The notes under the pieces are model-generated. The model had not been told where the DNA came from. It saw only the letters and a list, made by a program, of their open reading frames with translations, and ran no database searches. From Escherichia phage vB_EcoM_E9.1, in the sequence record PP886230: a DNA stretch of 64,000 nt, one strand, 5' to 3'. How positions within the stretch are numbered: position 1 is the first letter of the stretch; the number at the start of each line of letters is the position of its first letter. Both the position numbers and the translations under genes were made by a program. This document shows positions 2,855 through 61,997 of the stretch, in pieces.

Positions 2855-4594
2855 ATGAGTTGGAAACGACATATGACAGTGGGAAGGTCTAAACTATCGA
2901 CCATCCCAAATCAGTCCAGTAATAGCAATAAATCAACAGGAACGAAAACAAATTTCGCTTCCTATCTTCCTGTTGTATATAATGGATTGGCAAACCGTAC
3001 TGAGCGTTATAGTCAGTATGAGCAAATGGACCAAGATCCTGAAATTAGAACTGCATTGAATATAATTGCTGACTTTTGTACCCAAAGTACTGAAGATTTT
3101 GGTTTACCATATAAAATCAAATATAAAGATGACATTGGTGATACTGAAGTAACGACTATTGAAGATCGTTTAGATGCATGGACTGAACAAAATGATTTTA
3201 AAACACGAATGTATGAAATTGTGCGTGGTCTTCTGAAATATGGTGATCAATTTTTCATTCGAGATCCAGAAACATTCGATTGGTATTGGGTAAGCCCCAA
3301 AAATGTTGAGCAAGTATTTGTTAACGAAGCCACTGGTAAAACACCAGTAATTTATTATATACGTGACGTATCATTAAATTTGAAAGATAAAGTTTTTAGT
3401 AACCTTCAAGTAGGATTTGATAAAACCGCTTATCCAGGAGCTATTCCGACAACAATGGGTGGCGGTGGTTCAGTAGCTGCGGGTGGTGCATCTGGTTTTA
3501 CAAGTCAAGGAAATACTGCTGACCCATTCAGTACTAACGGTCAATTAGACGTTATTCCTGTTGGTGCAGAACACGTAATTCATCTAACGCTAAATACAGG
3601 ACAAGATGGGGTATGGCCTTTTGGTACTAGTATACTTGAGGACGTATTTAAAGTCTATAAGCAAAAAGAACTTCTGGAAGATAGTATCATAATTTATCGT
3701 GTACAACGTGCACCTGAGCGTCGTGTATTTAAAATTGATGTTGGTGATATGCAAGCACACCAAGCGATGGCTTATGTTGAAAGATTTAAAAATGAAATCC
3801 ACCAGCGTAGAATACCTTCAAACAAAGGTGGAAGTACTTCATTAATGGATGCAGCATATAATCCATTAAGCATTTTAGAAGACTACTTTTTCCCACAAAC
3901 TTCTGAAGGTCGTGGTTCAGATGTTCAAACATTACCAGGCGGTGATAACTTAGGACAAATTGATGACTTACGTTATTTTAATAATAAATTGATTCGTGGT
4001 CTTCAAATACCAGCTTCTTATCTACCACAAGGTCCAGATGATGGTGGTGTTTCATTATTTGGTGATGGTGCTACACAAGCTATGGCAAGTGAATTGCGAT
4101 TCAATAATCAATGTATGCGTTATCAACGTTTAGTTGCAAAACATTTTGATGCTGAATTCAAAAGATTTATGGTTAAAAATGGATATAACATTAGTACTTC
4201 ATCTTTTGAAGTTATTATGAATCCACCTATTAACTTAGCTTCTTATCGTAAAGCTGAACTAGATGCTAAACTAATTAATACATATCTTCCTCTTAATGAC
4301 TTGCCTTATATGGCGAAACAAACAATTCTTGAAAAAATGGGCTTTTCTAAAGCTGATATTGTTAAGAATGAACAAATGTGGTTACAAGAGAATCCACAAG
4401 ATGGTTCCCAACCTTCTGGTGGTGAAGAAGATTCCGCTGGATTACAGTCTGTTGGTATTGATGCTCCAAATGATCCTGGAATGGATCTTGGTATTGATGG
4501 AGAAGGTAATTTGGAAAGTGCTGATGCCGAATACCAAGAGCAACAGAGTGGAAGTGGTGGTTTCAACCCTAATAATTTAGGCAATTCTTTTTAA
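2855..4594 (+). CDS. gp20: Portal vertex protein (T4 gp20 family)
   Basis: Segment LLEDSIIIYRVQRAPERRVFKIDVGDM...QTLPGGDNLGQIDDLRYF matches the remembered T4 gp20 core ([27 protein letters not shown]...DTLPGADNTGNMEDIRWF). Confidence 0.92.
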   Translation: MSWKRHMTVGRSKLSTIPNQSSNSNKSTGTKTNFASYLPVVYNGLANRTERYSQYEQMDQDPEIRTALNIIADFCTQSTEDFGLPYKIKYKDDIGDTEVTTIEDRLDAWTEQNDFKTRMYEIVRGLLKYGDQFFIRDPETFDWYWVSPKNVEQVFVNEATGKTPVIYYIRDVSLNLKDKVFSNLQVGFDKTAYPGAIPTTMGGGGSVAAGGASGFTSQGNTADPFSTNGQLDVIPVGAEHVIHLTLNTGQDGVWPFGTSILEDVFKVYKQKELLEDSIIIYRVQRAPERRVFKIDVGDMQAHQAMAYVERFKNEIHQRRIPSNKGGSTSLMDAAYNPLSILEDYFFPQTSEGRGSDVQTLPGGDNLGQIDDLRYFNNKLIRGLQIPASYLPQGPDDGGVSLFGDGATQAMASELRFNNQCMRYQRLVAKHFDAEFKRFMVKNGYNISTSSFEVIMNPPINLASYRKAELDAKLINTYLPLNDLPYMAKQTILEKMGFSKADIVKNEQMWLQENPQDGSQPSGGEEDSAGLQSVGIDAPNDPGMDLGIDGEGNLESADAEYQEQQSGSGGFNPNNLGNSF

Positions 4595-4615
4595 ACATAA
4601 ATAACAGTGTATAAG

Positions 4616-4645
4616 AATGAGGGTTTATTTTTACCCTCATTTATA
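4616..4645 (+). terminator. Hairpin after portal gene (9-bp stem aatgagggt/accctcatt, U-rich loop); weak terminator or processing site
   Basis: Perfect inverted repeat 4616-4624 / 4633-4641; downstream T-tract is short. Confidence 0.4.
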
Positions 4646-4667
4646 ATGCATATTTCAAGGAGATCAA

Positions 4668-4895
4668 ATGTTAAAGGACATCTTTGAATCTAGCAGTGAT
4701 TCAATGTACGACCCTGAAGATGATCAGAACGTATATAAAATTACTGATTCCAGAAAACCGAAACTAACATTACAAGTATTAAACAACTTAAGAAAGTACC
4801 GTGAATTTAAAGCACATGAAGAACAACGCCGCAAAAATGTGGTTGCAGTTGTTTATGCCGCTACACCAACTGGTGACGGTTCTGGGTTAATGTAA
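4668..4895 (+). CDS. Small prohead core protein (gp67-like by position and size)
   Basis: 75-aa ORF between portal and core/protease genes, mirroring T4 order 20-67-68-21. Confidence 0.45.
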   Translation: MLKDIFESSSDSMYDPEDDQNVYKITDSRKPKLTLQVLNNLRKYREFKAHEEQRRKNVVAVVYAATPTGDGSGLM

Positions 4896-4946
4896 ATCAA
4901 AAATCGCACTTTTTAAAGCTTTTAAAAAAGGCGATTTTATTCAGTA

Positions 4947-4963
4947 CTAAATAATATCATACT
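4947..4963 (+). promoter_or_regulatory. Late-promoter-like motif CTAAATAATATCATACT
   Basis: 16-nt stretch taaataatatcatact is identical to the one upstream of the major capsid gene (7712-7727); resembles the T4 late promoter TATAAATA. Confidence 0.5.
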
Positions 4964-4996
4964 TTATACGAATGTAATATATCTATGGAGGATATA

Positions 4997-5845
4997 ATGG
5001 CGAATTTAAAACTACTACAAGAAGCAATTGCGGCGTTTGCAAATGGCGAACAAGATATTGCTGATAAAAAAATGCGTAAGTATTTCGTTGAGCAAGCTCA
5101 AGAAATTAACAAACAACTAGAAGAAAGCATGGAAGATGAAGACGACGATGAAGATTGTGAAGTCGAAGTTAAAGTCAAAGATGAAGAAAAGCTTGACGAA
5201 GATTTTGATGTACAACCAGACGAAGGTCTAAATGCTGAAATCGAATACACCCTTGGTGAAGAAGATGAAAGTGCAGAAGAAGAAGTTGAATTCTCTGCTG
5301 ATGCAGATGGTGACGGTGAAGACGATGTTGACGTTGAAGTGAAAGCTGATGCTGATGTTCCTTCCGAAGACCAATGGGAATCAATCCAAGATGCTTTCCG
5401 TGGCCTACAACAAATGTTTGATGAAATCGGTGACGGTGAAGTTGATCTAGATTCTGAAGAAGAAGTAGAAGATAGCGAAGAAGAAGTTGGCGTTGACGGT
5501 GACGACGAATTTGCTGATGTTGAATTCGGTGATGAAAAATTCGGTGAATCCTTCAAACTAGAAAAAGTTGCTCCAGTTGATAAGAAAGAAAAAGCTGGCA
5601 CTCATTCCAAATCTCCAGTAGCACCAGAAGCTAAATCTCCAGTAGCAGGAGCAGAGCCAGTTAAATTCGCTAAGAAAACTGACCAAGCACCACTACTAGA
5701 CCTAGATGATAAATCTGTTCTACCAAAAGATAGTCTAGATCTTGGTAAAAATGCTCGCGGTGAAATGAAAGATGTTAAAGCACCAAAAACTACTGCATCT
5801 AATTCTAAATCACCACTAAGCAAAGCACAACCTAAACTAAAATAA
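4997..5845 (+). CDS. Highly acidic prohead core / internal protein (gp68-like by position)
   Basis: Extremely Asp/Glu-rich ORF with a basic Lys/Pro/Ser-rich tail containing KSPVA repeats; GGAGGA RBS at 4987-4992 favours ATG 4997 over the track start 4985. Confidence 0.6.
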   Translation: MANLKLLQEAIAAFANGEQDIADKKMRKYFVEQAQEINKQLEESMEDEDDDEDCEVEVKVKDEEKLDEDFDVQPDEGLNAEIEYTLGEEDESAEEEVEFSADADGDGEDDVDVEVKADADVPSEDQWESIQDAFRGLQQMFDEIGDGEVDLDSEEEVEDSEEEVGVDGDDEFADVEFGDEKFGESFKLEKVAPVDKKEKAGTHSKSPVAPEAKSPVAGAEPVKFAKKTDQAPLLDLDDKSVLPKDSLDLGKNARGEMKDVKAPKTTASNSKSPLSKAQPKLK

Positions 5846-5865
5846 ATATCTGAAAGGAGATCATT

Positions 5866-6489
5866 ATGAGTAGTATGATTCGTGAATGGTCTTCATTCAA
5901 TGATTCTAAAGTTGTTTTGGAACATCGTGATAATGGATTTGGTGGGCGTGACTGCTATCTTCGTGGTATTGCTATTCAAGCCGACCAACGAAATTTGAAC
6001 GAGAGAATTTACCCTTTATCTGAAATTACAAGGGCAGTAAATAACATGAACCAGCGTTTAGCTAAAGGTGAAAGCATTCTTGTTGAATGTGACCATCCAG
6101 AAACACTAACTATTAACCTAGACCGAGTAGCAGCAATGATTACTAAGGTTTGGATGGAAGGTGCTAATGGTATGGCAGAAATCAAACTACTTGATACTGC
6201 ACATGGTCAAAATATCCGTAAAATGCTAGAGGCTGGTGTAAAACTTGGTGTAAGTTCTCGCGGTTCCGGTAACGTTGATTATAATGGAATAGTTTCTGAT
6301 TTTGAAATTATCACTATTGATATTGTTGCTCAACCTAGTGCTCCAGAAGCATACCCAACAGCGGTATTTGAATCTCTGATGAGTAAGTACGGATCACCTT
6401 GTAATAGTTCTAAAAAAATCACTGAATCTAAAAAAGTAAATAATTTAGATTCTGAAATATACGATTTTTTCAAGAAATTAAAAGGTTAA
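5866..6489 (+). CDS. gp21: Prohead core protease (T4 gp21 family)
   Basis: Motif GIAIQADQRNLNERIYPLSEI matches the conserved prohead protease region (ADxxNRNGRVYP type); sits between core and scaffold genes. Confidence 0.8.
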   Translation: MSSMIREWSSFNDSKVVLEHRDNGFGGRDCYLRGIAIQADQRNLNERIYPLSEITRAVNNMNQRLAKGESILVECDHPETLTINLDRVAAMITKVWMEGANGMAEIKLLDTAHGQNIRKMLEAGVKLGVSSRGSGNVDYNGIVSDFEIITIDIVAQPSAPEAYPTAVFESLMSKYGSPCNSSKKITESKKVNNLDSEIYDFFKKLKG

Positions 6490-6500
6490 CATTTTAAAAA

Positions 6501-6532
6501 TATAAATATCTGTATGTTGAAGTACAGATATT
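6501..6532 (+). promoter_or_regulatory. TATAAATA late-promoter box overlapping a 10-bp perfect hairpin (aatatctgta / tacagatatt)
   Basis: TATAAATA at 6501-6508; inverted repeat 6505-6514 / 6523-6532 with 8-nt loop, between protease and scaffold genes. Confidence 0.45.
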
Positions 6533-6555
6533 TCAGTACTTAAAGGAGAGAACGA

Positions 6556-7671
6556 ATGTCTAAATTAGAAAAGCTTCTAAAAGAATCATCTCTTTCTGAT
6601 GAGGCAAAACAGCTAATTCAGGAAGCATGGAATGAAGAAAAGAATACACTAGCCGCAGAGATGCGTGAAGAAATGAAAGGCCGTTATCAGCAAGATTTGG
6701 CTGAACTAACCGAAGGTTTGAATACTATGGTTACTCAAGTCATTGCTGAAGAAATGGGTGCTGTATATGAAGAGAAAAAACGTCTCGTTGAAGATCGTGT
6801 AACTCTACGTAAAACACTAAGCAATTTCTCTGCGTTTTCAAACTCTGTTTTGGCTGAAGAAGTTAAACAAATGCGTAAAGAACGTAAGCATCTTCATGAA
6901 TGCATGGGTAAATTCGTTAATTTTTCTAACGGTATACTAGCAGAAGAGCTAAAAGAATTCCACACTGAAAAACGTCAACTAGTTGAAACTCGCGTTAAAC
7001 TACTTGCTGAAGGTTCACGTCAAATTGCTGAAGCTCGTAATAACTTCATCAAACGTACATCTGAAAGTGCTGCTAAATATATTGCAGAAACCACTCAGAA
7101 GAATCTATATGCGTTGAAACAAGATCTAGTGGAAGCAAAACAAAATATGTTTGGTCGTAAAATCTTTGAAGCATTTGCTCAAGAGTTTAATGTCAAACAA
7201 TTTAATGAAAACTCATTGCTACGTTCCCTAACTGAATCAATTAAATCTAAAGAAGATGAAATTGCTCAAGTTAAGCAAGAACTACATGAAACTGCTAATG
7301 CGGTTAAAGCTGCTAAAACCAAACTACGTATTATGGAAGATGCACAAGCACGTAATGCGATTATGTCTGAACTAGTAAAACCACTAACTGCACAGCAAAA
7401 ACAAATTATGGAATCCCTTCTAGCTACTTCACCTACTGAAAAGCTTAAAGAAGATTTCAGCAAGTACCATAAGTCAGTACTTAACGGTACTAAAGTAAAT
7501 GAATCTGCTACCACTCGTCAAGCAGTTCAGTCTTCCGCTAAGAAAACTCTTGCAGAAGGTAAAGTAATCACTGGCAACCGTCAGGCTATTGTTGAAAGCG
7601 AAGAAATGACCGCTGACGATATGGCATTCCTAAAAGAACTCGATGTTCTTTCAGGTATCAATAAAAAATAA
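6556..7671 (+). CDS. gp22: Prohead scaffold protein (gp22-like)
   Basis: 371 aa, charged, predicted coiled-coil (E/K/Q/A-rich); directly upstream of major capsid gene as in T4. Confidence 0.7.
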   Translation: MSKLEKLLKESSLSDEAKQLIQEAWNEEKNTLAAEMREEMKGRYQQDLAELTEGLNTMVTQVIAEEMGAVYEEKKRLVEDRVTLRKTLSNFSAFSNSVLAEEVKQMRKERKHLHECMGKFVNFSNGILAEELKEFHTEKRQLVETRVKLLAEGSRQIAEARNNFIKRTSESAAKYIAETTQKNLYALKQDLVEAKQNMFGRKIFEAFAQEFNVKQFNENSLLRSLTESIKSKEDEIAQVKQELHETANAVKAAKTKLRIMEDAQARNAIMSELVKPLTAQQKQIMESLLATSPTEKLKEDFSKYHKSVLNGTKVNESATTRQAVQSSAKKTLAEGKVITGNRQAIVESEEMTADDMAFLKELDVLSGINKK

Positions 7672-7709
7672 ACATTTTAAAGCATTTTAATAATCAAATT
7701 TTTCAGTTC

Positions 7710-7727
7710 TATAAATAATATCATACT
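7710..7727 (+). promoter_or_regulatory. Late promoter TATAAATA plus conserved extension (TATAAATAATATCATACT)
   Basis: Exact T4 late-promoter consensus TATAAATA at 7710-7717, about 45 nt upstream of the capsid gene start. Confidence 0.65.
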
Positions 7728-7762
7728 GAAAAACGAATATAACATCTTTAAGGAGATATATA

Positions 7763-8938
7763 ATGTCACAACTACTAAATGAATCCAAATGGGTAGCAGT
7801 AAAAGAGAAACTAGTTGAAGGTCTACAGGGTACTCGTAAGTCTGTAATGGAAACTGTTCTTGATAACCATCGTAAAGTTATGCTAACTGAATCCGCAACT
7901 TCTGGTGCAACTACCGCTGGTAACATCGCTACTCTAAACAAAGTGATTCTACCAATTATGCGTCGTGTAATGCCAACCGTTATTGCTAACGAAATCATCG
8001 GTGTTCAACCAATGACTGGTCCAGTTGGTCAGATCCACACCCTACGTGTGCAATATGCTGATAACGCACCTGGTGTTATCGCTGGTGAAGAAATGCTTTC
8101 TCCATACAAAATCGCTAAATCCTACTCTGGTGATCTAAATGCGGATAATAGCAACCCACAAGCTGCTCCTACTAGCCAACTAGAAGGTACTATGGGTCGT
8201 CGCGTTAACATCCGTATTCTACGTGAAACTGTTGAAGCGAAATCTCGTCGTCTATCTGCACGTTGGACTGTTGAATCTGCACAAGATGCTCAATCCCAAC
8301 ATGGTGTTGACGTTGAAGCAGAACTAATGGCTGCAATCGCTCAAGAAGTTACCGTAGAAATCGACCAAGAGCTACTAAGCCGTCTACGTGCACTACCTGG
8401 TGCTGCTGCTGTAACTTATGACCAATCTAAAGTTACTGGTGTTGCAACCTTCGTTGGTGATGAGCACGCTGCTCTAGCAACTCTAATTAACCGTCAAGCA
8501 AACGAAGTTGCTCGTCGTACTAAGCGTGGTGCTGCAAACTGGGCTGTTGTTTCCCCAACTGCACTAACCATTCTACAATCTGCTACTACTTCTAGCTTTG
8601 CACGTACCACTGAAGGTACTTTCGAAGCACCAACTAACGTTAAGTTTGTAGGTACTCTAAACAGCACTATGCGTATTTTTGTTGATACTTATGCAAGTGA
8701 TGCAGAAGATATTCTAATTGGTTATAAAGGTAATGCAGAAACTGATGCTGGGGTGTTCTATTGCCCATACATCCCACTAATGGCTTCCGGTACTGTAATG
8801 GACCCTAACACTGGGGAACTCGTGACCACATTCCTTACCAGGTATGGTTATGTACAATTGACTGATAGTACTTCTTCTCTTGGTAACGCTGCTGACTACT
8901 ACAGCAAAATCGCTATCAAAAACGTTACTTTCATGTAA
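7763..8938 (+). CDS. gp23: Major capsid protein (T4 gp23 family)
   Basis: VIANEIIGVQPMTGPVGQIHTLRVQYA and NIRILRETVEAKSRRLSARWTVESAQD...HGVDVEAELMAAIAQEV match remembered T4 gp23 blocks (LIAFDICGVQPMNSPTGQVFALRAVYG; IDKQVIEAKSRQLKAAYSIELAQD). Confidence 0.93.
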   Translation: MSQLLNESKWVAVKEKLVEGLQGTRKSVMETVLDNHRKVMLTESATSGATTAGNIATLNKVILPIMRRVMPTVIANEIIGVQPMTGPVGQIHTLRVQYADNAPGVIAGEEMLSPYKIAKSYSGDLNADNSNPQAAPTSQLEGTMGRRVNIRILRETVEAKSRRLSARWTVESAQDAQSQHGVDVEAELMAAIAQEVTVEIDQELLSRLRALPGAAAVTYDQSKVTGVATFVGDEHAALATLINRQANEVARRTKRGAANWAVVSPTALTILQSATTSSFARTTEGTFEAPTNVKFVGTLNSTMRIFVDTYASDAEDILIGYKGNAETDAGVFYCPYIPLMASGTVMDPNTGELVTTFLTRYGYVQLTDSTSSLGNAADYYSKIAIKNVTFM

Positions 8939-9076: not shown

Positions 9077-9997
9077 ATGAAACCAAATGAAGAAAAATTT
9101 ATTAATACAGTGAATGAAAAGTACGGTACTGGTGTGTATTTGTTTGATAAAATGGTATATATTAATGCTCATAAACAGGTTGAACTTTATTGTGTAGAAG
9201 GTGGTCATTATTTCAAAATCACTCCTATGCAAATAGTCCGACCTTCTGCAAAAGGATGTAACATTTGTCAAAAAAACACAGCATACACGACTGAAACGTT
9301 TATTGAAAAAGTTAAAACCATCCATCCAACATTGTCATTTGAGAAAACTATCTACAAAAAACAAAGTGACAGTAATGGGCGAGTCATCGTTACGTGTCAT
9401 AATGATCCGAATGATGTGCATGATTGGATTGTATCTGCCAATACTTTGTTAAGAGGTAAATCAGGGTGTGGTGTTTGTTCTGGTAAAGGCGGGAGGACAT
9501 TGGAGCAATTTGTCAAAGAAGCAAAAAAAGTACATGGTGATGATTATGATTATTCTGAATCATGCTATACTGGTAGTGAAGAATATATGGATATGAAGTG
9601 TAATAATTGCAATGAAAAATTCAAACAACAGCCCAAAGCACACCTTTCAGGACGCGGGTGTCCTAACTGTGGTAAGTATGGATACCAACCATCAAAACCT
9701 GGATATTTCTATGTACAAAAACTAACTAACAATAACAAGACGGTGTACAAATATGGGATCACTGGTGATATGAAACGCCGTGTCAACGAACAAAGCCGCA
9801 ATTCTGAGTTCGAGCATGAAGTACTTATAGAACGCTACTTTGAAGATGGCAATCAACCATTACTGTTGGAAAAGTTCATAAAGAAATACATTGAAAGTGG
9901 TGTTGTAAGTACTGAAGAGTTACCGTCAGGATTTACTGAAACATTTGATGCTAAGTATCTTGAAAGTGTTTTAGAAATTGTAAATACTTTTAAGTAA
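9077..9997 (+). CDS. Homing-endonuclease-like protein: three Cys-rich zinc-ribbon repeats plus C-terminal T5orf172 / GIY-YIG-like domain
   Basis: Three repeats each ending in a CxxC pair (CNICQ, CGVCSG, CPNCG); C-terminus GYFYVQKLTNNNKTVYKYGITGDMKRRVNEQ resembles the T5orf172 signature. Confidence 0.6.
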   Translation: MKPNEEKFINTVNEKYGTGVYLFDKMVYINAHKQVELYCVEGGHYFKITPMQIVRPSAKGCNICQKNTAYTTETFIEKVKTIHPTLSFEKTIYKKQSDSNGRVIVTCHNDPNDVHDWIVSANTLLRGKSGCGVCSGKGGRTLEQFVKEAKKVHGDDYDYSESCYTGSEEYMDMKCNNCNEKFKQQPKAHLSGRGCPNCGKYGYQPSKPGYFYVQKLTNNNKTVYKYGITGDMKRRVNEQSRNSEFEHEVLIERYFEDGNQPLLLEKFIKKYIESGVVSTEELPSGFTETFDAKYLESVLEIVNTFK

Positions 9998-10371: not shown

Positions 10372-10410
10372 TAGATAAATATCTCCATATTAATGATGGA
10401 GATTGAATCT

Positions 10411-10719
10411 ATGTCACAGATATGTTATGTTATAATAAACTCTGCATGGCCTGACTATGTTAAGATTGGTTTCACTTCTAAATCTGAAATGACAGAGCGT
10501 TTGAGAACGTATCAGACAGCTACCCCGTTTCGTGATTTTGAAGTTTATCATGAAGTTCACTTTGAAGACGCACGTTTAGCTGAAAAAGAGATACATAAAA
10601 GGCTTAAACAAATGAATGCAACTAGACAACCAAACACAGAGTGGTTTAAAATGTCTAAAAAGATAGCAGCAAACATCATTGATTCTGTGTGGGATGATAT
10701 GGATAACGACTTGCTATAG
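10411..10719 (+). CDS. Stand-alone T5orf172 (GIY-YIG-like) domain protein
   Basis: CYVIINSAWPDYVKIGFTSKSEMTERLRTYQTATP...EWFKM matches the T5orf172 pattern (YVL...KIGxT...R...EWF). GGAG RBS before ATG 10411; track start 10393 is an alternative. Confidence 0.65.
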   Translation: MSQICYVIINSAWPDYVKIGFTSKSEMTERLRTYQTATPFRDFEVYHEVHFEDARLAEKEIHKRLKQMNATRQPNTEWFKMSKKIAANIIDSVWDDMDNDLL

Positions 10720-10759
10720 GAATAAATATAGTATATATTAATCATAAAGGGATTTATAC

Positions 10760-12370
10760 ATGAGCATAAGTTTTAATAACCCATTGGATACAATGACCAG
10801 TACTGGTGCTAATGGATCTTTAGAACTAATAGTGCTTGGTGGTACACCAACTAACCCAAGACCTATTCGTTTTAATTCGTCATCAGTTATTATACCAGTA
10901 CAAACGTTACCTACTGGTGAACAAGGTGCAATGGTTTTTGATCGAAACGAATTAGTTTTGAAGTATCATAACGGTACAAGTTGGATTGCAGTATATGATA
11001 CTGATACTATTTTGGAACCAATTAGAATTTCATTAGATGAAGTAAACAGAAAATTAAATTTAAAAGTAGAAAGTGTAACATACAGTAGTAGTACTGTTCC
11101 TAGTGCAAGTATTAGTGGAACAAACTTAAACATTGTATTCCCTACTGCTTCTAGTGGTGGTTCTGGTCCAACTGGTCTTTACACTTCACTTAAACCTGGT
11201 GCTATTACACAATATTCATTGACTTCTGGTCAATCTGTTGCTAGTATACGTGAACAAATGTCAGGGCAATCGAATGGACAAAGTGGACGAAACGGTTCAC
11301 AAGGTGCTCCGTGGAAAACGTCTGACGGTTGGTGTTTTGCTGATGGTATGTGGTGGCAATGGGAGGGGGAAAATGGTACAATTACCAAACAAGTACCAAA
11401 CCTTAACCAAAACGCGTATTTAAAAGGTATAACAACATCAGGTGTAACTAAAACTGATAGTGTTATTGGTAGTAGTGGTAACATTAGTGGAACTGTATTG
11501 AGTGTTGCCCAGTTACCATCACACTCATTTAGTTTTAGTGGAACCACTGGTGCTGCTGGTCGTCATGGTCATAGTCAAGCACTAAAAGGTATGGACCGTA
11601 GTGGTCTAAATGCGTTAACTTCAAGTAATGATAACGGTATACCAACTGTAATCAATAACATTAACGAAGCACCAGACCACATTCACTCATTTAGTGGAAA
11701 CACTAACACACTTGGTGGAAACCAACCACACTATCATGGTATTAGCAACATTGATGTGGAACACTTTAACGTTGCATACCTATATAACATTGCTGAATCT
11801 AACGTCGCATTGAGTGAAAAAGTTGCAAACACTCGTTATGTACTAAAAACTGGTGATACAATGACTGGTTCATTGACTATTGCAAACAGTGCGTCAATTA
11901 AGTCAAATGATACATCATTAGTTCTATATTTCCGTAACGCAAGCGGTGGTGAGCGTGCGGCAGTGTATCATAACTCTTCAAATAATACATTGAGATTACG
12001 TTCCGGTGGAGCAGAAGTTACTGTAAACTCTTCTGGTACTTTAGCTGCTCCATCATTAACTGTTTCTAACAACTCAGCTACTGTTGGTGGTAAAAATATT
12101 GTTCGTTCAATTAACGGTACTGCTGCTGATGCTAGTGGCAACGTTACTTTGCAAATTAGTACTAATAACGTACAAAGTATTCGTTTGAGTGCACGTATTG
12201 AAACAAGTAAAATACCTGATTCTTCATGGACATATACACCAGAAGGTGCATTTATGGATGGCGTATGGATTTCTGTTAATGGTAGTTCAGGCACTCACTT
12301 AGAACGAATTAGTTATCGCTATGTTCAAATGCAAATAAATGGTAACTGGGAAACAGTACGTCAACAATAA
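10760..12370 (+). CDS. Tail fibre protein with phage tail-collar type His motifs
   Basis: Gly/Ser/Thr/Asn-rich 536 aa with SHSFSFSGTTGAAGRHGHSQ and HIHSFSGNTNTLGGNQPHYHG, reminiscent of T4 gp12/gp37-type fibre motifs. Confidence 0.8.
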   Translation: MSISFNNPLDTMTSTGANGSLELIVLGGTPTNPRPIRFNSSSVIIPVQTLPTGEQGAMVFDRNELVLKYHNGTSWIAVYDTDTILEPIRISLDEVNRKLNLKVESVTYSSSTVPSASISGTNLNIVFPTASSGGSGPTGLYTSLKPGAITQYSLTSGQSVASIREQMSGQSNGQSGRNGSQGAPWKTSDGWCFADGMWWQWEGENGTITKQVPNLNQNAYLKGITTSGVTKTDSVIGSSGNISGTVLSVAQLPSHSFSFSGTTGAAGRHGHSQALKGMDRSGLNALTSSNDNGIPTVINNINEAPDHIHSFSGNTNTLGGNQPHYHGISNIDVEHFNVAYLYNIAESNVALSEKVANTRYVLKTGDTMTGSLTIANSASIKSNDTSLVLYFRNASGGERAAVYHNSSNNTLRLRSGGAEVTVNSSGTLAAPSLTVSNNSATVGGKNIVRSINGTAADASGNVTLQISTNNVQSIRLSARIETSKIPDSSWTYTPEGAFMDGVWISVNGSSGTHLERISYRYVQMQINGNWETVRQQ

Positions 12371-18994: not shown

Positions 18995-19684
18995 TTAAAC
19001 CAATGCTGGGATGTATTGGAAAAGTTTAACACCGAAATCACCTGCTGCATCAGCAGATTGGGAACGTAGGTAAACTTCGGTAACACCATCTTTAGCAAGT
19101 AGTGGAACACCAGTTAGATCATCAATTAGTAGACGGCCTTCTTCGGATTCAGTACTTGGTACACCTTGTGGTGATTTAAGATCTTTGTTAAAGACACCCG
19201 CACGTTCAACTAGGAAGGTAACAACAGAAGCATCAGCAATACTAACTGAACCTGCACTCAATACACCATCAGGTGCGTTGGTGAAACCAGTAACTGGAAA
19301 TACTTCAAGACCATTACCTGCGATGTTAGAGGTAGCGATGATAACCGCACGTTGTTGAACAACATCGACAATACGTTTAACGTTAGTTTGTGCTGCATAA
19401 GATGCATTGTAATCAGCTTCTAGTGTGCCAAGAACAAATGCAGTTCCATCAATACGTTTGATACCTTTATCATTTAGATATGCTAGAATTTCTTCTGGAA
19501 TATCAGTGTTTAGAAAACGTTGTAGACCAGCATAAGAAGAAACTGCACCAGTAACTAGAACGTTTACGTCTCCTAGCTTACTGATAGCAATGGATGCTAG
19601 GGCGTTAGTGCCACAAAAGTAACCTAGAATACGTTCAAAGGAATAACCATTGATACGTTCAAAAGAAGTATTAGTATATGACAT
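18995..19684 (-). CDS. Late-expressed putative virion structural protein (paralog A)
   Basis: 229 aa on minus strand with AGGAGG RBS; shares QQRAV and ER(A/Q)GVFNK blocks with the adjacent upstream ORF. Confidence 0.7.
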   Translation of the reverse strand: MSYTNTSFERINGYSFERILGYFCGTNALASIAISKLGDVNVLVTGAVSSYAGLQRFLNTDIPEEILAYLNDKGIKRIDGTAFVLGTLEADYNASYAAQTNVKRIVDVVQQRAVIIATSNIAGNGLEVFPVTGFTNAPDGVLSAGSVSIADASVVTFLVERAGVFNKDLKSPQGVPSTESEEGRLLIDDLTGVPLLAKDGVTEVYLRSQSADAAGDFGVKLFQYIPALV

Positions 19685-19698
19685 AATCTATCCTCCTA

Positions 19699-20298
19699 TT
19701 ATAGTTGAACAGGAAGAGCAGCACGTACTTTAATTGCTACAGCAGTAGATGCACCTGCATCACCAACACCATCAGTACCTTGACTTACGAAAGTTTTGGT
19801 ACGGAAAACTTTAGCTTGAGCGATAGACTTAGCTAGGTCAACAGTTGGATCAACTGGAGCAGGACATGCTGAACCAGGACGAACTTCTTGCTTGTTAAAT
19901 ACGTCTTGACGTTCACAGATGAAAGTCAATGCAACAGAATTAGCACCACCTGCTACATCAGCACCACTAGTGCCGAACGCAACTACGTTTGGATTAGCAT
20001 TTTTGAAATCAGCAGGAATAACAACTTCTGAATCAAGAGCTAGTAGAGAGGTAGTAACTAGAACTGCACGTTGTTGTAGTAGTTGGGTAACCATGAATAG
20101 GTTATATTGAGCATTACTTAGAGCAGTTTGATACGCTTCAGCTTGAACATCAGAACCGTCAGAAGTAACTTTGGTAGTACCTAGTTCAACATCAGTTGGT
20201 AGATCGATTACGATGGTAACGAAACCGTTATTACCACCCCACCATTCGCGAGCAACGCTAGACATACCATAGTTACGGTTAAAAGAATTAAGACTCAT
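19699..20298 (-). CDS. Late-expressed putative virion structural protein (paralog B)
   Basis: 199 aa; AAGGAG RBS; paralog of 18995..19684; driven by late-promoter motif at 20401..20418. Confidence 0.7.
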   Translation of the reverse strand: MSLNSFNRNYGMSSVAREWWGGNNGFVTIVIDLPTDVELGTTKVTSDGSDVQAEAYQTALSNAQYNLFMVTQLLQQRAVLVTTSLLALDSEVVIPADFKNANPNVVAFGTSGADVAGGANSVALTFICERQDVFNKQEVRPGSACPAPVDPTVDLAKSIAQAKVFRTKTFVSQGTDGVGDAGASTAVAIKVRAALPVQL

Positions 20299-20400
20299 GA
20301 AAATCTCCTTGTCAAATTTTGTGCAGGTATATCCTGCTTAAAGTTATTTATCAAAAAATATCACTAGCATTTAAATTTACTGAGATATTTAATGAATTTC

Positions 20401-20418
20401 TATGATATTATTTATCAA
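20401..20418 (-). promoter_or_regulatory. Late-promoter motif (minus strand) GATAAATAATATCATAG
   Basis: Reverse complement contains ataaataatatcata, 15 nt identical to the capsid-gene late promoter region. Confidence 0.55.
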
Positions 20419-20423
20419 ATCTG

Positions 20424-25707
<5,284 letters not shown>

Positions 25708-29398: not shown

Positions 29399-30883
29399 AT
29401 GAAAACTTGTAAGTTAACCTTATTGGATGAGGTGAATTGTAAATTTGAGGGACTTGATCCCTCAATTAGACAAAAGATGATTCGTGCAACTGAATATGTG
29501 TTACCATATGCAAAGTTCACACCAGCAGGACGTATTGGACGTTGGGATGGTAAAGTTCAGTTTATGAATTTAGGCGGGACAACTTATTATCATATGTTAG
29601 ATAAGTTATTGCCTATTCTTGATGAAGCTAAGATTGACATTGAATTAGTAGATCATAGGGTAGATTATGGATTTAAATTTGACCCCATTGATGAAGATAT
29701 TTTTAGTGATGTTGTATTCGGTGCAGGACACCACATGGAAGGTAAATCCATAAAACTACGTGAACATCAAGTTAATGCGGTTAATGCATGTTTGGCTAAT
29801 CCACACGGACTACTATTGGCAGCTACTGGTGCAGGTAAAACTCTCATTACTGCTGCATTGTCAAAGAAAGTGCAAGAGTATGGACGTTCTGTTATAATAG
29901 TACCAAGTACTGACTTAGTACAACAAACATATGATGACTACATTATGTGTGGGTTGGATACTGGCATGTTCTATGGTTCACAAAAAGATTTTGGTCACCA
30001 ACATACTATTACGACTTGGCAATCATTTAACTCTCTATGGAAGAAAACCAAGAAAGGTGAAATTGAATTAACTGAACAAGACGTGAATGATTTTATCGAT
30101 GGAGTAGTTTGTGTTATCGTTGATGAGTGTCAAGGTGCAGGCGGTGACGCATTAGTTCAAGTACTTTCTAAAGTTATGAATAACGTACCATTACGTTGGG
30201 GTCTTACTGGAACAATTCCTAAAGATCCGGTAGTTGCCGCGAAAATCAAATGTAATGTTGGTGATGTTATATTTAAAATAACTGCAAAGGAATTACAAGA
30301 TAAACAAATACTAAGTACATGTAATGTGAATTGCATCAAACTAAAAAGTAGTATGAAGTTTGCATCATATGCTGAAGAGTTGAAATACTTAGTAACTGAC
30401 AGAGATAGGATGGCATATGTAGCGTCATTGATATCTGCGTTATCTGAATCAGGAAACACTTTAGTTTTAGTAGATAGACTTGAAGCAGGTGAGTTGCTAT
30501 GTGAATTTTTAGGCATTCCCAAATCAGAATTCGTTCGTGGAGAAACTAAAAAGAAAGATCGAGAATCATCTTATGGTGAAATTCGTTGGGCTGATAATAA
30601 AATACTTATTGCGACATACGGCGTTGCCAGTACGGGTATTAGTATTTCAAGGTTATATAATGTAGTATTGATTGAGCCAGGAAAAAGTTTTGTAAGAACT
30701 ATACAGTCAATTGGACGTGGATTACGCCGAGCAGAAGATAAAGACCACGTAGAAATATATGATATTAGTGGTTCTAATAAGTATAGTGCCAAGCATTTAC
30801 GAGAACGTTTAGCTTACTATAAGGAAGCACAATATCCTCATAGTATAATAGATGTTAAAGATTGGGAAAACACAGCGGGATAA
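29399..30883 (+). CDS. uvsW: SF2 helicase UvsW
   Basis: LLLAATGAGKTLITAALS (Walker A), VIVDECQ (DExQ), ATYGVASTGISISRLYNVVLIEPGKSFVRTIQSIGRGLRR parallel to T4 UvsW (ASYGVFSTGISVKNLHHVVL...LQTIGRVLRK). Confidence 0.9.
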   Translation: MKTCKLTLLDEVNCKFEGLDPSIRQKMIRATEYVLPYAKFTPAGRIGRWDGKVQFMNLGGTTYYHMLDKLLPILDEAKIDIELVDHRVDYGFKFDPIDEDIFSDVVFGAGHHMEGKSIKLREHQVNAVNACLANPHGLLLAATGAGKTLITAALSKKVQEYGRSVIIVPSTDLVQQTYDDYIMCGLDTGMFYGSQKDFGHQHTITTWQSFNSLWKKTKKGEIELTEQDVNDFIDGVVCVIVDECQGAGGDALVQVLSKVMNNVPLRWGLTGTIPKDPVVAAKIKCNVGDVIFKITAKELQDKQILSTCNVNCIKLKSSMKFASYAEELKYLVTDRDRMAYVASLISALSESGNTLVLVDRLEAGELLCEFLGIPKSEFVRGETKKKDRESSYGEIRWADNKILIATYGVASTGISISRLYNVVLIEPGKSFVRTIQSIGRGLRRAEDKDHVEIYDISGSNKYSAKHLRERLAYYKEAQYPHSIIDVKDWENTAG

Positions 30884-34705: not shown

Positions 34706-34743
34706 CATAAATATTAGTATAAATTTATACCTATTATTTATGG
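34706..34743. promoter_or_regulatory. Palindromic divergent late-promoter region (GTATAAATTTATAC core)
   Basis: 14-bp perfect palindrome 34717-34730 gives a TATAAAT box on both strands; flanked by inverted ccataaata / tatttatgg. Confidence 0.5.
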
Positions 34744-34754
34744 AAGGAAAAACT

Positions 34755-35732
34755 ATGGCTCATCACGGCGTGTTTATGTACCCTTATAATCAGGAAGTAT
34801 CATTGGGCAATTTTAATATGCCATATAGCAATGAAAAACTAACTATATATAGAGGGGCAAATAATAATTTATCTTTTACTGTTCACAACGCTGATGGAAA
34901 ATATACTTTATTGAAAGATAATGAATATCTTACATTTATGATTTTTGATGCACGAAATAATACTAAACTATTTGATGTTGTATTAGAAAAACAAGAACCC
35001 AGTTGGTTATCAGAAAGTGGACAAGGAAGACAAACATTAGGAAATAAAAAGAAAGTATATTATGGATGTATTGTTCCAGCAGGAGTTATTCAAGATACCA
35101 GTCCTGGTTCAAAATATAGATGGAGCATTACTAAAGTAACAATGGATGGTTCACTTATAGAACCAACACAATATCTATACACAGGGATGAACTTTGAGGC
35201 ATCAGCAGAGCTAATAATTTCAGACCAAGCAGCACCTGTATTTGTCCCCAGTACTGAAATATCAGTTAATAAAAATCCAGCATGGACAACTATAAAGCGT
35301 TTATATCATGAACCAATTGGAAATGGTATGATTGGTGAATATGATATTCTCGCATCAACTCCACTACCAGCACAAATGCAGTTTGGATTAGTAGATGGAT
35401 TAAGTAGTATTGCAATCTATTTTGATAAATTTATTGGTAGAATACAGCTACAAGGGTGCTTGTGTAACAACGTACCTAATGATAATGAAAACTATAAATG
35501 GTTTATTATTAAATTAGATGGAAAGGATTATATTGAAAATGGAATTGATTCAGAAGGTTTTCCAAAAGAACTTGACGGAATACAAGCATTTAATTTTAAA
35601 GGAAATTATATGTGGTTACGTTTGGTGGTTGCTATTCATCCCAAAATTGTTCCAGTACCATATGACTATGCTGCTGTCCGAAAAGTGTATGACCCTTTCC
35701 TAACAGTACCTAAAATTTTGATACGTAGATGA
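34755..35732 (+). CDS. Hypothetical protein, probably late
   Basis: GGAAGG RBS before ATG 34755; track start 34689 would include the promoter palindrome. Confidence 0.6.
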   Translation: MAHHGVFMYPYNQEVSLGNFNMPYSNEKLTIYRGANNNLSFTVHNADGKYTLLKDNEYLTFMIFDARNNTKLFDVVLEKQEPSWLSESGQGRQTLGNKKKVYYGCIVPAGVIQDTSPGSKYRWSITKVTMDGSLIEPTQYLYTGMNFEASAELIISDQAAPVFVPSTEISVNKNPAWTTIKRLYHEPIGNGMIGEYDILASTPLPAQMQFGLVDGLSSIAIYFDKFIGRIQLQGCLCNNVPNDNENYKWFIIKLDGKDYIENGIDSEGFPKELDGIQAFNFKGNYMWLRLVVAIHPKIVPVPYDYAAVRKVYDPFLTVPKILIRR

Positions 35733-42890: not shown

Positions 42891-43427
42891 ATGAAACAAG
42901 ATCTATATACAATTCGTGCACTAGTAAGTAAAGGTTATGATTTAGAAGAAGTAATTAAACTTAGTGAAGAAGAGATTGATAAACTTGATTTATCAAATAA
43001 GCTAATTCTAAATATCAAAGATTATAAACAACGTGGTGCTAAACCTGTTGAAGAAATTAAAGAACAAATTGCACAAGATATTAGTGTTGATGAAGTATCA
43101 CGCAATGTACCACCAGAAGTTATCCAAGAGTATGTTGTTGATAGTGAAGAACAAGTTAAAGTTTCTGAAGAAGTTGAAATTATTGCAGAAGAACTTGCTC
43201 CTGAATTGGAAGAAGATGAAGTTGTTATTGAGCGTGTTGTTTCATCTAAAGAAGATTTGGACATTATCAAAGAAGCATTACAGACTAAAGAATTTAAAAG
43301 TGTTTCCAACTATGTTAAACATTTAAAATCTTTAGTACCAGAACAAATTTTATCTTCTGTAGATAGCTCAGTTGTATCTCAACTAATTAATGAGCGTATT
43401 GCGGAAGTTAAAGAAAAAGCTAAATAA
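42891..43427 (+). CDS. Hypothetical acidic coiled-coil protein
   Basis: ORF; start uncertain (42855, 42873 or 42891). Confidence 0.5.
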   Translation: MKQDLYTIRALVSKGYDLEEVIKLSEEEIDKLDLSNKLILNIKDYKQRGAKPVEEIKEQIAQDISVDEVSRNVPPEVIQEYVVDSEEQVKVSEEVEIIAEELAPELEEDEVVIERVVSSKEDLDIIKEALQTKEFKSVSNYVKHLKSLVPEQILSSVDSSVVSQLINERIAEVKEKAK

Positions 43428-43455
43428 TCCTATAATACTATAGGAGATAGTTTTT

Positions 43456-44037
43456 ATGGCACAACAACAAATTGCTTTACAACAAGTAAGAACTGGTAAA
43501 CAGAGAGACTTACCTGATGCATTAGAAAAAGGTCAGATAGGATTCAGTACTGATGTGGGTCGTGTTTTTATTGGCCTTCCATCATCATCTGACCCCGCCA
43601 GCTTAGTTGCAGGTAGAACTTGGACTACTGATCCAAATTCAGGTAAAGAAAACGTAGAAATAATTACAGAATTTTCACCGTGGAGAACGGTATCAAAAAT
43701 AATTAACAGACCGTTTAAAGTTGATCTTCCACAAAATCAAGAAAGTATAGAAGTTATTCTTGAAAGTGAAAGTAGAGTATTCATCGATTATATTGCATAT
43801 GATGATACCGAAACGGTTTTGGAATCAGGAACTATTCAAATTGTAGCTGCTGGCACAAACACGATGATTGCACAGTCAAATAATACAAATAGAACTGACG
43901 CAATTATTTCTATCTCATTTGAAGATCCTGCATATGATTCTACAACTGGAAATATGCAATTTAACATAGTTAACTCGGATTATTTAAATTCAGGATATCA
44001 TATAGAATTTGTATATCGTGGGTGGGACAAACCTTAA
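43456..44037 (+). CDS. Hypothetical protein
   Basis: 193-aa ORF followed by a terminator. Confidence 0.6.
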   Translation: MAQQQIALQQVRTGKQRDLPDALEKGQIGFSTDVGRVFIGLPSSSDPASLVAGRTWTTDPNSGKENVEIITEFSPWRTVSKIINRPFKVDLPQNQESIEVILESESRVFIDYIAYDDTETVLESGTIQIVAAGTNTMIAQSNNTNRTDAIISISFEDPAYDSTTGNMQFNIVNSDYLNSGYHIEFVYRGWDKP

Positions 44038-47648: not shown

Positions 47649-49249
<1,601 letters not shown>

Positions 49250-61981: not shown

Positions 61982-61997
61982 TATAAATAATCTATAG
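61982..61997 (+). promoter_or_regulatory. Late promoter TATAAATAATCTATAG
   Basis: TATAAATA at 61982-61989, 38 nt upstream of the open-ended ORF. Confidence 0.55.

Follow-up and report, generated by a model that had tools for sequence, protein, structure and literature searches.

Recurring sequences upstream of head and other virion genes as probable T4-type late promoters of an Asteriusvirus

Introduction

The late promoters of bacteriophage T4 have a TAAATA core at the −10 position, do without a −35 element and are placed right after terminators, 5′ of virion genes, all of which holds for the sites described below. In the T4 system the sigma factor is gp55, which works with gp33 and the gp45 clamp. 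The T4 octamer, TATAAATA, occupies positions −13 to −6 (PMC1524935), and a preponderance of A/T marks the strand-separating segment downstream of the box (PMC2988020). A T4-family box with a relaxed 5′ end, CTAAATA, forms the late promoters of Aeromonas phage Aeh1, in which C at position −12 acts as a strong determinant. Closer to the phage studied here are CBB and GAP32, Rak2-like jumbo phages in which MEME identified ‘Promoter 3’, ATAAATA followed by A/T-rich sequence, 5′ of structural genes; the authors of the CBB study report no homologues of gp33, gp45 or DsbA (PMC5259590). The motif and the clade are the same as ours, and the published 14-nt motif already spans seven downstream bases; the CBB/GAP32 work, however, concerns another genus, does not separate a start-site box from A/T richness and maps no transcripts. 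For Asteriusvirus, our literature search returned no equivalent promoter description, and no transcript 5′ ends, timing data, transcript maps or promoter analyses; the RNA-seq paper on PA5oct gives sigma-70-like motifs only.

We analysed a 64,000-nucleotide stretch of DNA (the window) in which an earlier note had pointed to a recurring 16-mer, interpreted as a T4 late box extended by about eight conserved downstream nucleotides. The outcome is a late-promoter map for jumbo coliphages that are studied for therapy and whose genome papers contain no promoter descriptions, with predicted transcription starts at 4959 and 7723 and predicted two-box sites 5′ of at least ten virion genes in the window. 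It reveals no new mechanism and its novelty is low: T4 late-promoter logic (a gp55-like sigma, TAAATA and an A/T-rich start region) reaches the Rak2-like clade, with the modest addition of a position-specific YATA preference at the start site that is common to T4 and CBB as well.

Results

The window, with a G+C content of about 34%, shares 99.5% identity with Escherichia phage JP4 and is related also to PBECO4 and 121Q; by sequence it is an Asteriusvirus, a PBECO4/121Q/JP4-like jumbo coliphage. Gene calls in this analysis were heuristic. The gene descriptions in the earlier note (acidic core, capsid and structural paralogs) are borne out. The open reading frame at 4997–5845 is strongly acidic (pI 4.06; 87 of 282 residues are D or E), and 7763–8938 encodes the major capsid protein. 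On the minus strand, 19699–20298, which comes first in gene order, and 18995–19684 are paralogs (35% identity, E = 8e-9). The start codon of the acidic frame is probably ATG 4997 rather than 4985, because GGAGG lies 5 nt 5′ of that ATG and the N-terminus MANxKLL is kept in relatives.

The exact 16-mer TAAATAATATCATACT occurs on the plus strand at 4948–4963 and 7712–7727, precisely where it had been reported. The first copy belongs to P1 (ACTAAATAATATCATACT, 4946–4963, TAAATA box at 4948–4953), which has a predicted +1 at A4959 and sits 38 nt 5′ of ATG 4997 of the acidic, core/scaffold-like virion protein. The second belongs to P2 (TATAAATAATATCATACT, 7710–7727), with a predicted +1 at A7723, 40 nt 5′ of ATG 7763 of the major capsid protein. 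A late-promoter-like copy on the minus strand, GATAAATAATATCATAGA, 116 nt 5′ of the first paralogous virion gene, has the 15-mer ATAAATAATATCATA (20401–20415) in common with the capsid copy. The minus-strand 15-mer match thus exists as claimed; its coordinates, given earlier as 20401–20418, were off by about 2 nt, as the copy spans 20399–20416. Two more TAAATA boxes lie nearer that gene, with their T at 20391 and 20350. The related versions on the plus strand were likewise found at their reported positions. The late-promoter-like GATAAATAATATTATAAA (24319–24336) lies 35 nt 5′ of the virion protein gene 24356–25642 and overlaps the final codons of the large terminase gene; the late promoter TATAAATAATCTATAG (61982–61997) is preceded immediately by a terminator hairpin and lies 44 nt 5′ of a virion protein gene whose start is at 62028 and whose end falls outside the window. 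TAAATA is present in all five of these sites, and each stands 5′ of a virion gene in the correct orientation.

Further candidates with both a TAAATA box and a downstream box were located on the plus strand: CATAAATATTTCTATAAT (599–616) 5′ of the virion protein gene 639–2843; GATAAATATCTCCATATT (10374–10391) 5′ of the frame 10411–10719, a GIY-YIG nuclease family protein by the PBECO4 annotation; AATAAATATAGTATATAT (10721–10738) 5′ of the tail fiber gene 10760–12370; and CATAAATATTAGTATAAA (34706–34723) and GCTAAATAATCCTATAAT (43419–43436) 5′ of the virion protein genes 34755–35732 and 43456–44037, respectively. On the minus strand, the late promoter candidate TATAAATACTAAAACACA (533–550) would serve a baseplate-hub gene that leaves the window at its left end. 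On the plus strand at 6501–6533, a TATAAATA box 5′ of the scaffold gene 6556–7671 overlaps a conserved hairpin with arms AAATATCTGTA (6504–6514) and TACAGATATTT (6523–6533; −12.3 kcal/mol, z = −4.05). Directly 5′ of P1 is a plus-strand terminator-like hairpin, AAAATCGC...GCGATTTT (4900–4938; −12.1 kcal/mol, z = −4.4), an order of terminator and then late promoter often seen in both this genome and T4. The P2 box lies in the 17-nt loop of an inverted repeat, TTTTTCAGT (7699–7707) and ACTGAAAAA (7725–7733), which spans 7699–7733 on the plus strand (−6.7 kcal/mol, z = −3.3) and whose arms co-vary in relatives.

The genome of PBECO4 was used to view the TAAATA core genome-wide. In oriented upstream intergenic DNA, TAAATA is the top enriched hexamer other than Shine–Dalgarno sequences (58 copies versus 6.3 expected, 9.2-fold). 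Of its 213 copies, 61 are intergenic and at most 120 nt 5′ of a same-strand gene, in a genome of which 11% is intergenic. When the site list was cross-read with the annotation, 24 different virion, head, tail or baseplate genes had a TAAATA site, including capsid, scaffold, the acidic core protein, tail fiber, baseplate and many genes annotated ‘virion structural protein’. T-richness at −14 to −5 of these sites largely reflects terminator U-tracts. Compared with the T4 octamer, the first two bases are loose in this clade: A stands at −12 in 52% of the PBECO4 sites, and the full TATAAATA is found in 18%. P1 reads ACTAAATA and several CBB sites read CTAAATA, a relaxed 5′ end like that of the Aeh1 box; in contrast to Aeh1, position −12 here is mostly A, with C a minority.

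A gp55-family sigma is encoded in this genome type too. In PBECO4 the annotation of gp530 reads ‘sigma factor for late transcription’; this protein matches PHROG 234, ‘late sigma transcription factor’ (E = 8e-18), and is 24% identical to T4 gp55 over 139 residues (E = 2e-4). A Pfam scan of this protein returned no family, and the family assignment came from PHROGs. At 279 aa versus 185 aa for T4 gp55, gp530 is the longer protein, with some 120 additional residues at its N-terminus. Of the base-pocket residues listed in PMC7892883 it retains four in our reading of the alignment: N13, F86, Y97 and T99. The gene was seen in PBECO4, a 99%-identical relative, at a place about 5 kb past the left end of the window. 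A tblastn search of PBECO4 with T4 gp33, gp45 and DsbA gave nothing below E = 1, but the same search missed gp55 too, so its sensitivity was too low to be informative.

Downstream of the core, the general signal is an A/T-rich stretch followed by YATA, which begins at offset 9–11 counted from the T of TAAATA. Among non-paralogous intergenic sites, 23 of 52 (44%) have YATA at these offsets, versus 6 of 125 coding sites (5%; p = 1e-9), and other windows of the same intergenic sequences contain it in 0–8 of 52. TATA alone, at 18 of the 52 sites, exceeds what a pure A/T sequence would give (p = 0.003), and G+C is depleted at offsets 6–20. T4 has the same tendency (YATA at +9 to +11 in 8/27 intergenic versus 3/127 coding copies, p = 4e-5), with a TATA excess over pure A/T background that is not significant (p = 0.10), and each of the 35 published late promoters of CBB has A or T at both offset 10 and offset 11. 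Since the T4 octamer occupies −13 to −6, +1 corresponds to offset 11; with this geometry YATA would coincide with the start site, CATA being −1/+1/+2/+3. Indirect but independent support for a start at offset 11 comes from distant relatives, in which frames of at least 100 aa have their ATG at offsets 10–12, most often at 11 (13 unique cases), never at 7, 9, 15 or 16. These frames have no Shine–Dalgarno sequence, so that they resemble leaderless mRNAs.

Discussion

The recurring sequence is, in our judgement, very likely a set of T4-type late promoters of an Asteriusvirus. The late-promoter part of the earlier proposal is borne out by TAAATA 5′ of virion genes, by its oriented enrichment, by a gp55-family sigma and by publication of the motif in related phages. 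We infer that the host RNA polymerase core with the phage gp55-like sigma directs late transcription from these sites, recognizing a −10-like (A)TAAATA with no −35 element. The A/T-rich segment just downstream would melt, and transcription would start about 11 nt past the T of TAAATA. Within the 16-mer, TAAATA would cover −11 to −6, ATAT (−5 to −2) would be the melting segment, free in sequence with A/T preferred, and C-A would form a pyrimidine–purine −1/+1 start (A4959 and A7723) with TACT as the first transcribed bases. Promoter activity would then depend on TAAATA and not on ATATCATA alone, and the general downstream signal would be a mere YATA preference at the start site. Both exact copies would drive very highly expressed head genes, and their 16/16 identity would mean that the two promoter regions are homologous or are kept alike.

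The first of these two options, which is compatible with the late-promoter reading and would account for the perfect match, is a real possibility that we rate only slightly short of probable: P1 and P2, 2.8 kb apart, would be copies of one terminator/promoter cassette, produced by duplication or gene conversion, and the 16-mer would be its best-preserved part. Among 1326 late-promoter pairs compared across 52 nt of upstream sequence, P1 and P2 are the most alike, with 29 matches (mean 15.9, s.d. 3.5), which suggests shared ancestry; the aligned regions are 79% identical. A 10/10 downstream identity between promoters is expected 0.014 times under column shuffling. These statistics are modest, because the flanks are short and A/T-rich. 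The two promoters also resemble each other within genomes, reading ATGACATACT and ATAACATACT in one relative (L009) and both cTAAATAA..GTACAA in another (L021), but they diverge more from each other in L012–L017, and selection favouring a single strong, optimal promoter might look the same.

A different question is whether YATA(C) is a second sequence-specific element of gp55-family late promoters. It would then be an ‘initiator’ that the holoenzyme reads and that has so far gone unnoticed under the label ‘A/T richness’, and in the head-gene promoters it could be combined with inverted repeats. We think this unlikely. In such an arrangement, the repeats at 7699–7733 (capsid) and 6504–6533 (scaffold) could adjust the output of the strongest late genes, for instance by hiding the box or making it accessible while the DNA is single-stranded or within RNA made by read-through.

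The proposal that the eight downstream nucleotides form an extra recognition element fares worse, and we consider it quite improbable. A larger late sigma or a cofactor would, on this proposal, read about eight bases past TAAATA in a 15–16-nt promoter, in keeping with the roughly 120-aa N-terminal extension of the sigma, with the position-specific YATA box and with the 13-mer TAAATAATATCAT, which occurs four times in PBECO4, always in intergenic DNA. However, the 348-kb PBECO4 genome has just two exact copies of the 16-mer, both at the orthologous sites, and the extension is missing from most virion-gene promoters. Promoter pairs that agree at 8 or more of the 10 downstream positions show no excess (8 versus 3.2 expected, shuffle maximum 10). 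Orthologous promoters, compared at IMG/VR loci (a spread protein search of phage records gave mostly distant T4-like capsids), argue in the same direction. P1 retains TAAATA-N4-CATAC in relatives. In an alignment of P2 from ten relatives, TAAATAA is invariant, the next 3–4 nt vary and (C/T)ATAC is retained. The ATAT segment reads ATGA, AGGA, ATAA or AAAG in orthologous promoters, and only YATAC stays. Relatives with 64–72% capsid identity have no intergenic promoter 5′ of the capsid gene and are therefore silent on the conservation of P2. The extension is thus not conserved as one block; what is general is an A/T-rich spacer plus YATA, seen in CBB and also in T4 with its short gp55. As this promoter type has already been described for the clade, it does not constitute a new recognition element.

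We give just as little credence to the other function proposed earlier, a conserved 5′ leader whose bases act in RNA, through a 5′-end structure or a site used by a protein or an RNase, on the stability or translation of head-gene mRNAs. ATAC(T), the predicted first transcribed bases, is kept in both head-gene promoters across relatives, and further downstream P1 and P2 both carry ACGAAT-TAA-AT and GGAG(G)ATATA. This further similarity, however, is absent from P1 of relatives. Only the last five of the 16 bases (ATACT) would be transcribed, which is the part of the leader proposal that stands. We reject a structured leader: the predicted P1 and P2 leaders fold no better than shuffled sequences (z = 0.56 and 0.05), and an Rfam scan of 4400–8000 found nothing relevant, its sole match scoring 23.8 bits against a gathering score of 92.6.

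It is highly improbable that TATA(AT) or CATA is the real −10 element, used by host sigma-70 or by the sigma-70-like factor of the phage, with TAAATA as a spacer or UP-like sequence. Some sites, at the RCC1-like paralogs, do read TAAATAtagTATAAT, and the phage factor has regions 2, 3 and 4. A position profile of the 61 PBECO4 sites nevertheless has no informative column from −30 to −15, and so no TTGACA-like conservation 16–18 bp 5′ of such a −10. Many start codons lie only 31–37 nt from TAAATA, such that transcription beginning about 7 nt past YATA would hit or pass the Shine–Dalgarno sequence. TAAATA, invariant by construction in this site set, shows 9-fold enrichment, whereas fewer than half of the sites (44%) have YATA, and the clade’s own sigma-70-like motifs are distinct (TTGAC..TATAAT and TGAAAC..TGnTATAAT).

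Chance recurrence in A/T-rich DNA has a negligible probability: although the base composition is permissive and five of the nine window matches to TAAATAATATCATACT with at most three mismatches (14906, 28635, 31168, 49971 and 51073) lie within or antisense to coding sequence and look like chance, shuffled sequences contain 3.5 ± 1.9 such matches and none of 100 dinucleotide shuffles reaches nine, and the exact copies and close variants are oriented towards virion genes and conserved in relatives.

Two further ideas were set aside. T4 P23 and the capsid promoter have ATACTGAA in common, which we judge a coincidence because T4 P23 is embedded in the coding sequence of gene 22. As a general feature of these promoters, inverted repeats flanking TAAATA find no support (arms of 7 bp or more at six sites versus 4.3 expected), so the repeat at the capsid promoter is a local one. 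Two long inverted repeats proved to be plain terminators with TAAATA in the loop, and some TAAATA copies in the loops of terminator hairpins may not be promoters.

The 16-mer and its relatives in the window

The exact 16-mer TAAATAATATCATACT is present at 4948-4963, in the late promoter P1 (4946-4963(+)), and at 7712-7727, in the late promoter P2 (7710-7727(+)). When up to three mismatches are allowed, the window contains nine matches, compared with 3.5 ± 1.9 in shuffled sequences; 0 of 100 shuffles reached nine. The earlier note was right about the two identical copies. Four of the nine matches are meaningful: both perfect copies plus GATAAATAATATCATAGA (20399-20416(-)) and GATAAATAATATTATAAA (24319-24336). 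The remaining five lie within coding sequence and look random. A fifth related site, TATAAATAATCTATAG, is located at 61982-61997. The gene descriptions in the earlier note likewise hold: P1 precedes the gene of a virion protein that is very acidic (pI 4.06), P2 that of the major capsid protein (7763-8938), and the other sites precede two paralogous virion proteins and two more virion proteins. The acidic protein probably starts at the ATG at 4997 and not at 4985, since 4997 has GGAGG in front of it and relatives conserve the N-terminus MANxKLL.

Probable late promoters in PBECO4

The region shares 99.5% identity with Escherichia phage JP4 and about 99% with PBECO4 and 121Q, which places it in the genus Asteriusvirus, among the Rak2-like jumbo phages. 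Phage IA-38 has a capsid protein with 100% identity to the one encoded here. The genome-wide test proposed in the earlier note was performed on the entire PBECO4 genome (348,113 bp), with gene calls from our own heuristic underlying the statistics. PBECO4 gp530, whose gene in that phage lies just past the window's left end, carries the annotation of a late-transcription sigma factor. It matches PHROG 234 ('late sigma transcription factor', E = 8e-18), and its alignment with T4 gp55 spans 139 aa at 24% identity. In our reading of this alignment, gp530 retains N13, F86, Y97 and T99, four of the residues that structural work has shown to form pockets for bases of the T4 box (PMC7892883).

In the oriented intergenic DNA upstream of PBECO4 genes, no hexamer other than Shine-Dalgarno words is more enriched than TAAATA (58 observed versus 6.3 expected). 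Although only 11% of the genome is intergenic, 61 of 213 copies are intergenic and no more than 120 nt upstream of a same-strand gene, and sites of this kind precede 24 different genes for head, tail, baseplate or 'virion structural' proteins. Upstream of TAAATA, the T-rich stretch frequently corresponds to a terminator hairpin's U-tract, a terminator-then-promoter layout common to PBECO4 late sites and T4. For the related phages CBB and GAP32, an ATAAATA motif with A/T-rich downstream sequence, found with MEME, has been reported before structural genes, alongside a gp55-like sigma factor (PMC5259590). The late-promoter reading is thus backed by the gp55-like sigma factor, the TAAATA enrichment and the placement before virion genes, and we infer late timing and the factor that reads these sites.

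A narrower downstream element

The earlier note had also proposed about eight extra conserved nucleotides after the box, and this part finds little support in that form. PBECO4 contains the exact 16-mer nowhere but at the two orthologous head-gene sites, and the 13-mer TAAATAATATCAT has four copies, all intergenic. Statistics were computed on 52 non-paralogous intergenic TAAATA sites. Outside the window, nine tandem 'regulator of chromosome condensation' paralogs (PBECO4 157828-168914) each carry a near-identical cassette of terminator, TAAATAtagTATAAT and AGGAGG; their sites were left out because they are non-independent. Ten identical bases after the box were found in one pair, P1/P2, versus 0.014 expected by column shuffling, and pairs with at least 8 of 10 downstream matches showed no excess among the 52 sites (8 observed versus 3.2 expected). 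What recurs is a second box, YATA, at offset 9-11 from the T of TAAATA (23/52 intergenic versus 6/125 coding sites, p = 1e-9); other windows of the same sequences contain it in 0-8 of 52. TATA alone (18/52) exceeds the expectation for pure A/T sequence (p = 0.003). Across ten related genomes, the orthologous capsid and acidic-protein promoters have an invariant TAAATAA and retain (C/T)ATAC, whereas the 3-4 bases after TAAATAA vary (ATAT, ATGA, AGGA, ATAA, AAAG).

A true 16-nt recognition element is consequently disfavoured, given that its spacer is variable and that it is missing from most virion-gene promoters. A structured leader or known RNA family is not supported. A sigma-70-type promoter with YATA as its -10 fails, since intergenic TAAATA sites of PBECO4 have no conserved -35 region and transcription would start on or past the Shine-Dalgarno sequence for many genes. 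Chance recurrence is excluded by the shuffles, the TAAATA enrichment and the intergenic 13-mers.

The YATA tendency is not really a novelty. T4 shares it (8/27 intergenic versus 3/127 coding sites, p = 4e-5), with an excess over pure A/T background that is not significant (p = 0.10). The 35 late promoters of CBB were published as 14-mers that already include seven downstream bases (PMC5259590); all 35 have A or T at offsets 10 and 11, with ATA as the last three bases of 11 of them and TAT as those of 8. For T4, a preponderance of A/T in the strand-separating segment past the box has already been described (PMC2988020). No Asteriusvirus promoter analysis or transcript map was found in the literature searched. 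The T4 P23 promoter, TATAAATActcctgATACTGAAG (29803-29825 in our T4 locus), and the capsid promoter of the window, TATAAATAatatcATACTGAAAAA (7712-7733), have ATACTGAA in common at or just past the start, probably by coincidence because T4 P23 lies within gene 22 coding sequence.

Predicted start sites

In T4, TATAAATA occupies -13 to -6 (PMC1524935), and +1 is therefore 11 nt after the T of TAAATA. This geometry predicts +1 at the A of CATACT in the 16-mer, at 4959 and 7723, with leaders of 38 and 40 nt, respectively. Independent support comes from distant environmental relatives (capsid 64-72% identical), in which ORFs no shorter than 100 aa, belonging to at least eight families, begin with an ATG 10-12 nt after that T (L023 8242, L035 4956, L040 6530, L046 6330, L029 3433, L025 2369, L037 6583, L054 4930 and others). 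The distribution peaks at offset 11 (13 unique sequences), with none at 7, 9, 15 or 16. Many sites from close relatives are orthologous copies and hence not independent. These ORFs lack a Shine-Dalgarno sequence, usually follow a terminator T-run and look like leaderless late mRNAs starting at the A of AUG. Given the start geometry and the ATG peak, the extension would comprise a melting segment (-5 to -2), a start at a pyrimidine-purine step (-1/+1) and the earliest bases of the transcript.

In RefSeq, gp538, a 3,333-aa virion protein encoded outside the window, starts at an ATG that follows a TAAATA box by 12 nt (PBECO4 320738-320750). Another in-frame ATG with a proper GGAG lies 30 nt downstream, so either the start is misannotated or the mRNA is leaderless.

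Identity of P1 and P2

Of 1326 late-promoter pairs compared over 52 nt upstream, P1 and P2 show the greatest similarity (29 matches; mean 15.9, s.d. 3.5). They also have leader and ribosome-binding-site segments in common, and are alike within single relatives too. The simplest reading of these sequences is common ancestry or homogenisation, together with selection for a strong start region, the two regions driving the most abundant head proteins. The capsid translation start, CTTTAAGGAGATATATAATG (7744-7765), is much like TTTAAGAAGGAGATATACATATG, the strong leader of phage T7 gene 10 that pET vectors use; its counterpart in the acidic-protein gene is GGAGGATATAATG.

Nearby features

An inverted repeat, TTTTTCAGT/ACTGAAAAA (7699-7733; -6.7 kcal/mol as RNA, z = -3.3), encloses P2 in a loop of 17 nt, and its arms change together in relatives (CAGT/ACTG, CTGT/ACAG, TTGT/ACAA; two compensated changes). 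Inverted repeats of this kind do not characterise late promoters in general. The repeat could be a read-through RNA hairpin, a palindromic site for a protein or a side effect of flanks that are T-rich upstream and A-rich downstream. Before the scaffold gene, the TATAAATA box overlaps a strong conserved hairpin, AAATATCTGTA-N8-TACAGATATTT (6501-6533; -12.3 kcal/mol, z = -4.05), and the predicted late start falls within its left arm. Relatives keep this hairpin with G-U-type changes, for example ATATTTGTAC...GTGCGAATAT in L009, suggesting that the element acts at the RNA level when transcripts read through.

The ORF immediately downstream of the capsid gene (9077-9997; 306 aa) is absent from PBECO4. 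It contains a treble-clef zinc finger (DUF4379, E = 8e-9), matches T5orf172 weakly and is probably a homing-endonuclease-type insertion. Finally, TGGAACAAAACAGAAAAGTGTGCTATAAT at 47822-47850 is the sole good example within the window of the TGAAAC...TGnTATAAT promoter type, which the CBB supplement lists under Table S6 and describes as preceding DNA-synthesis genes.
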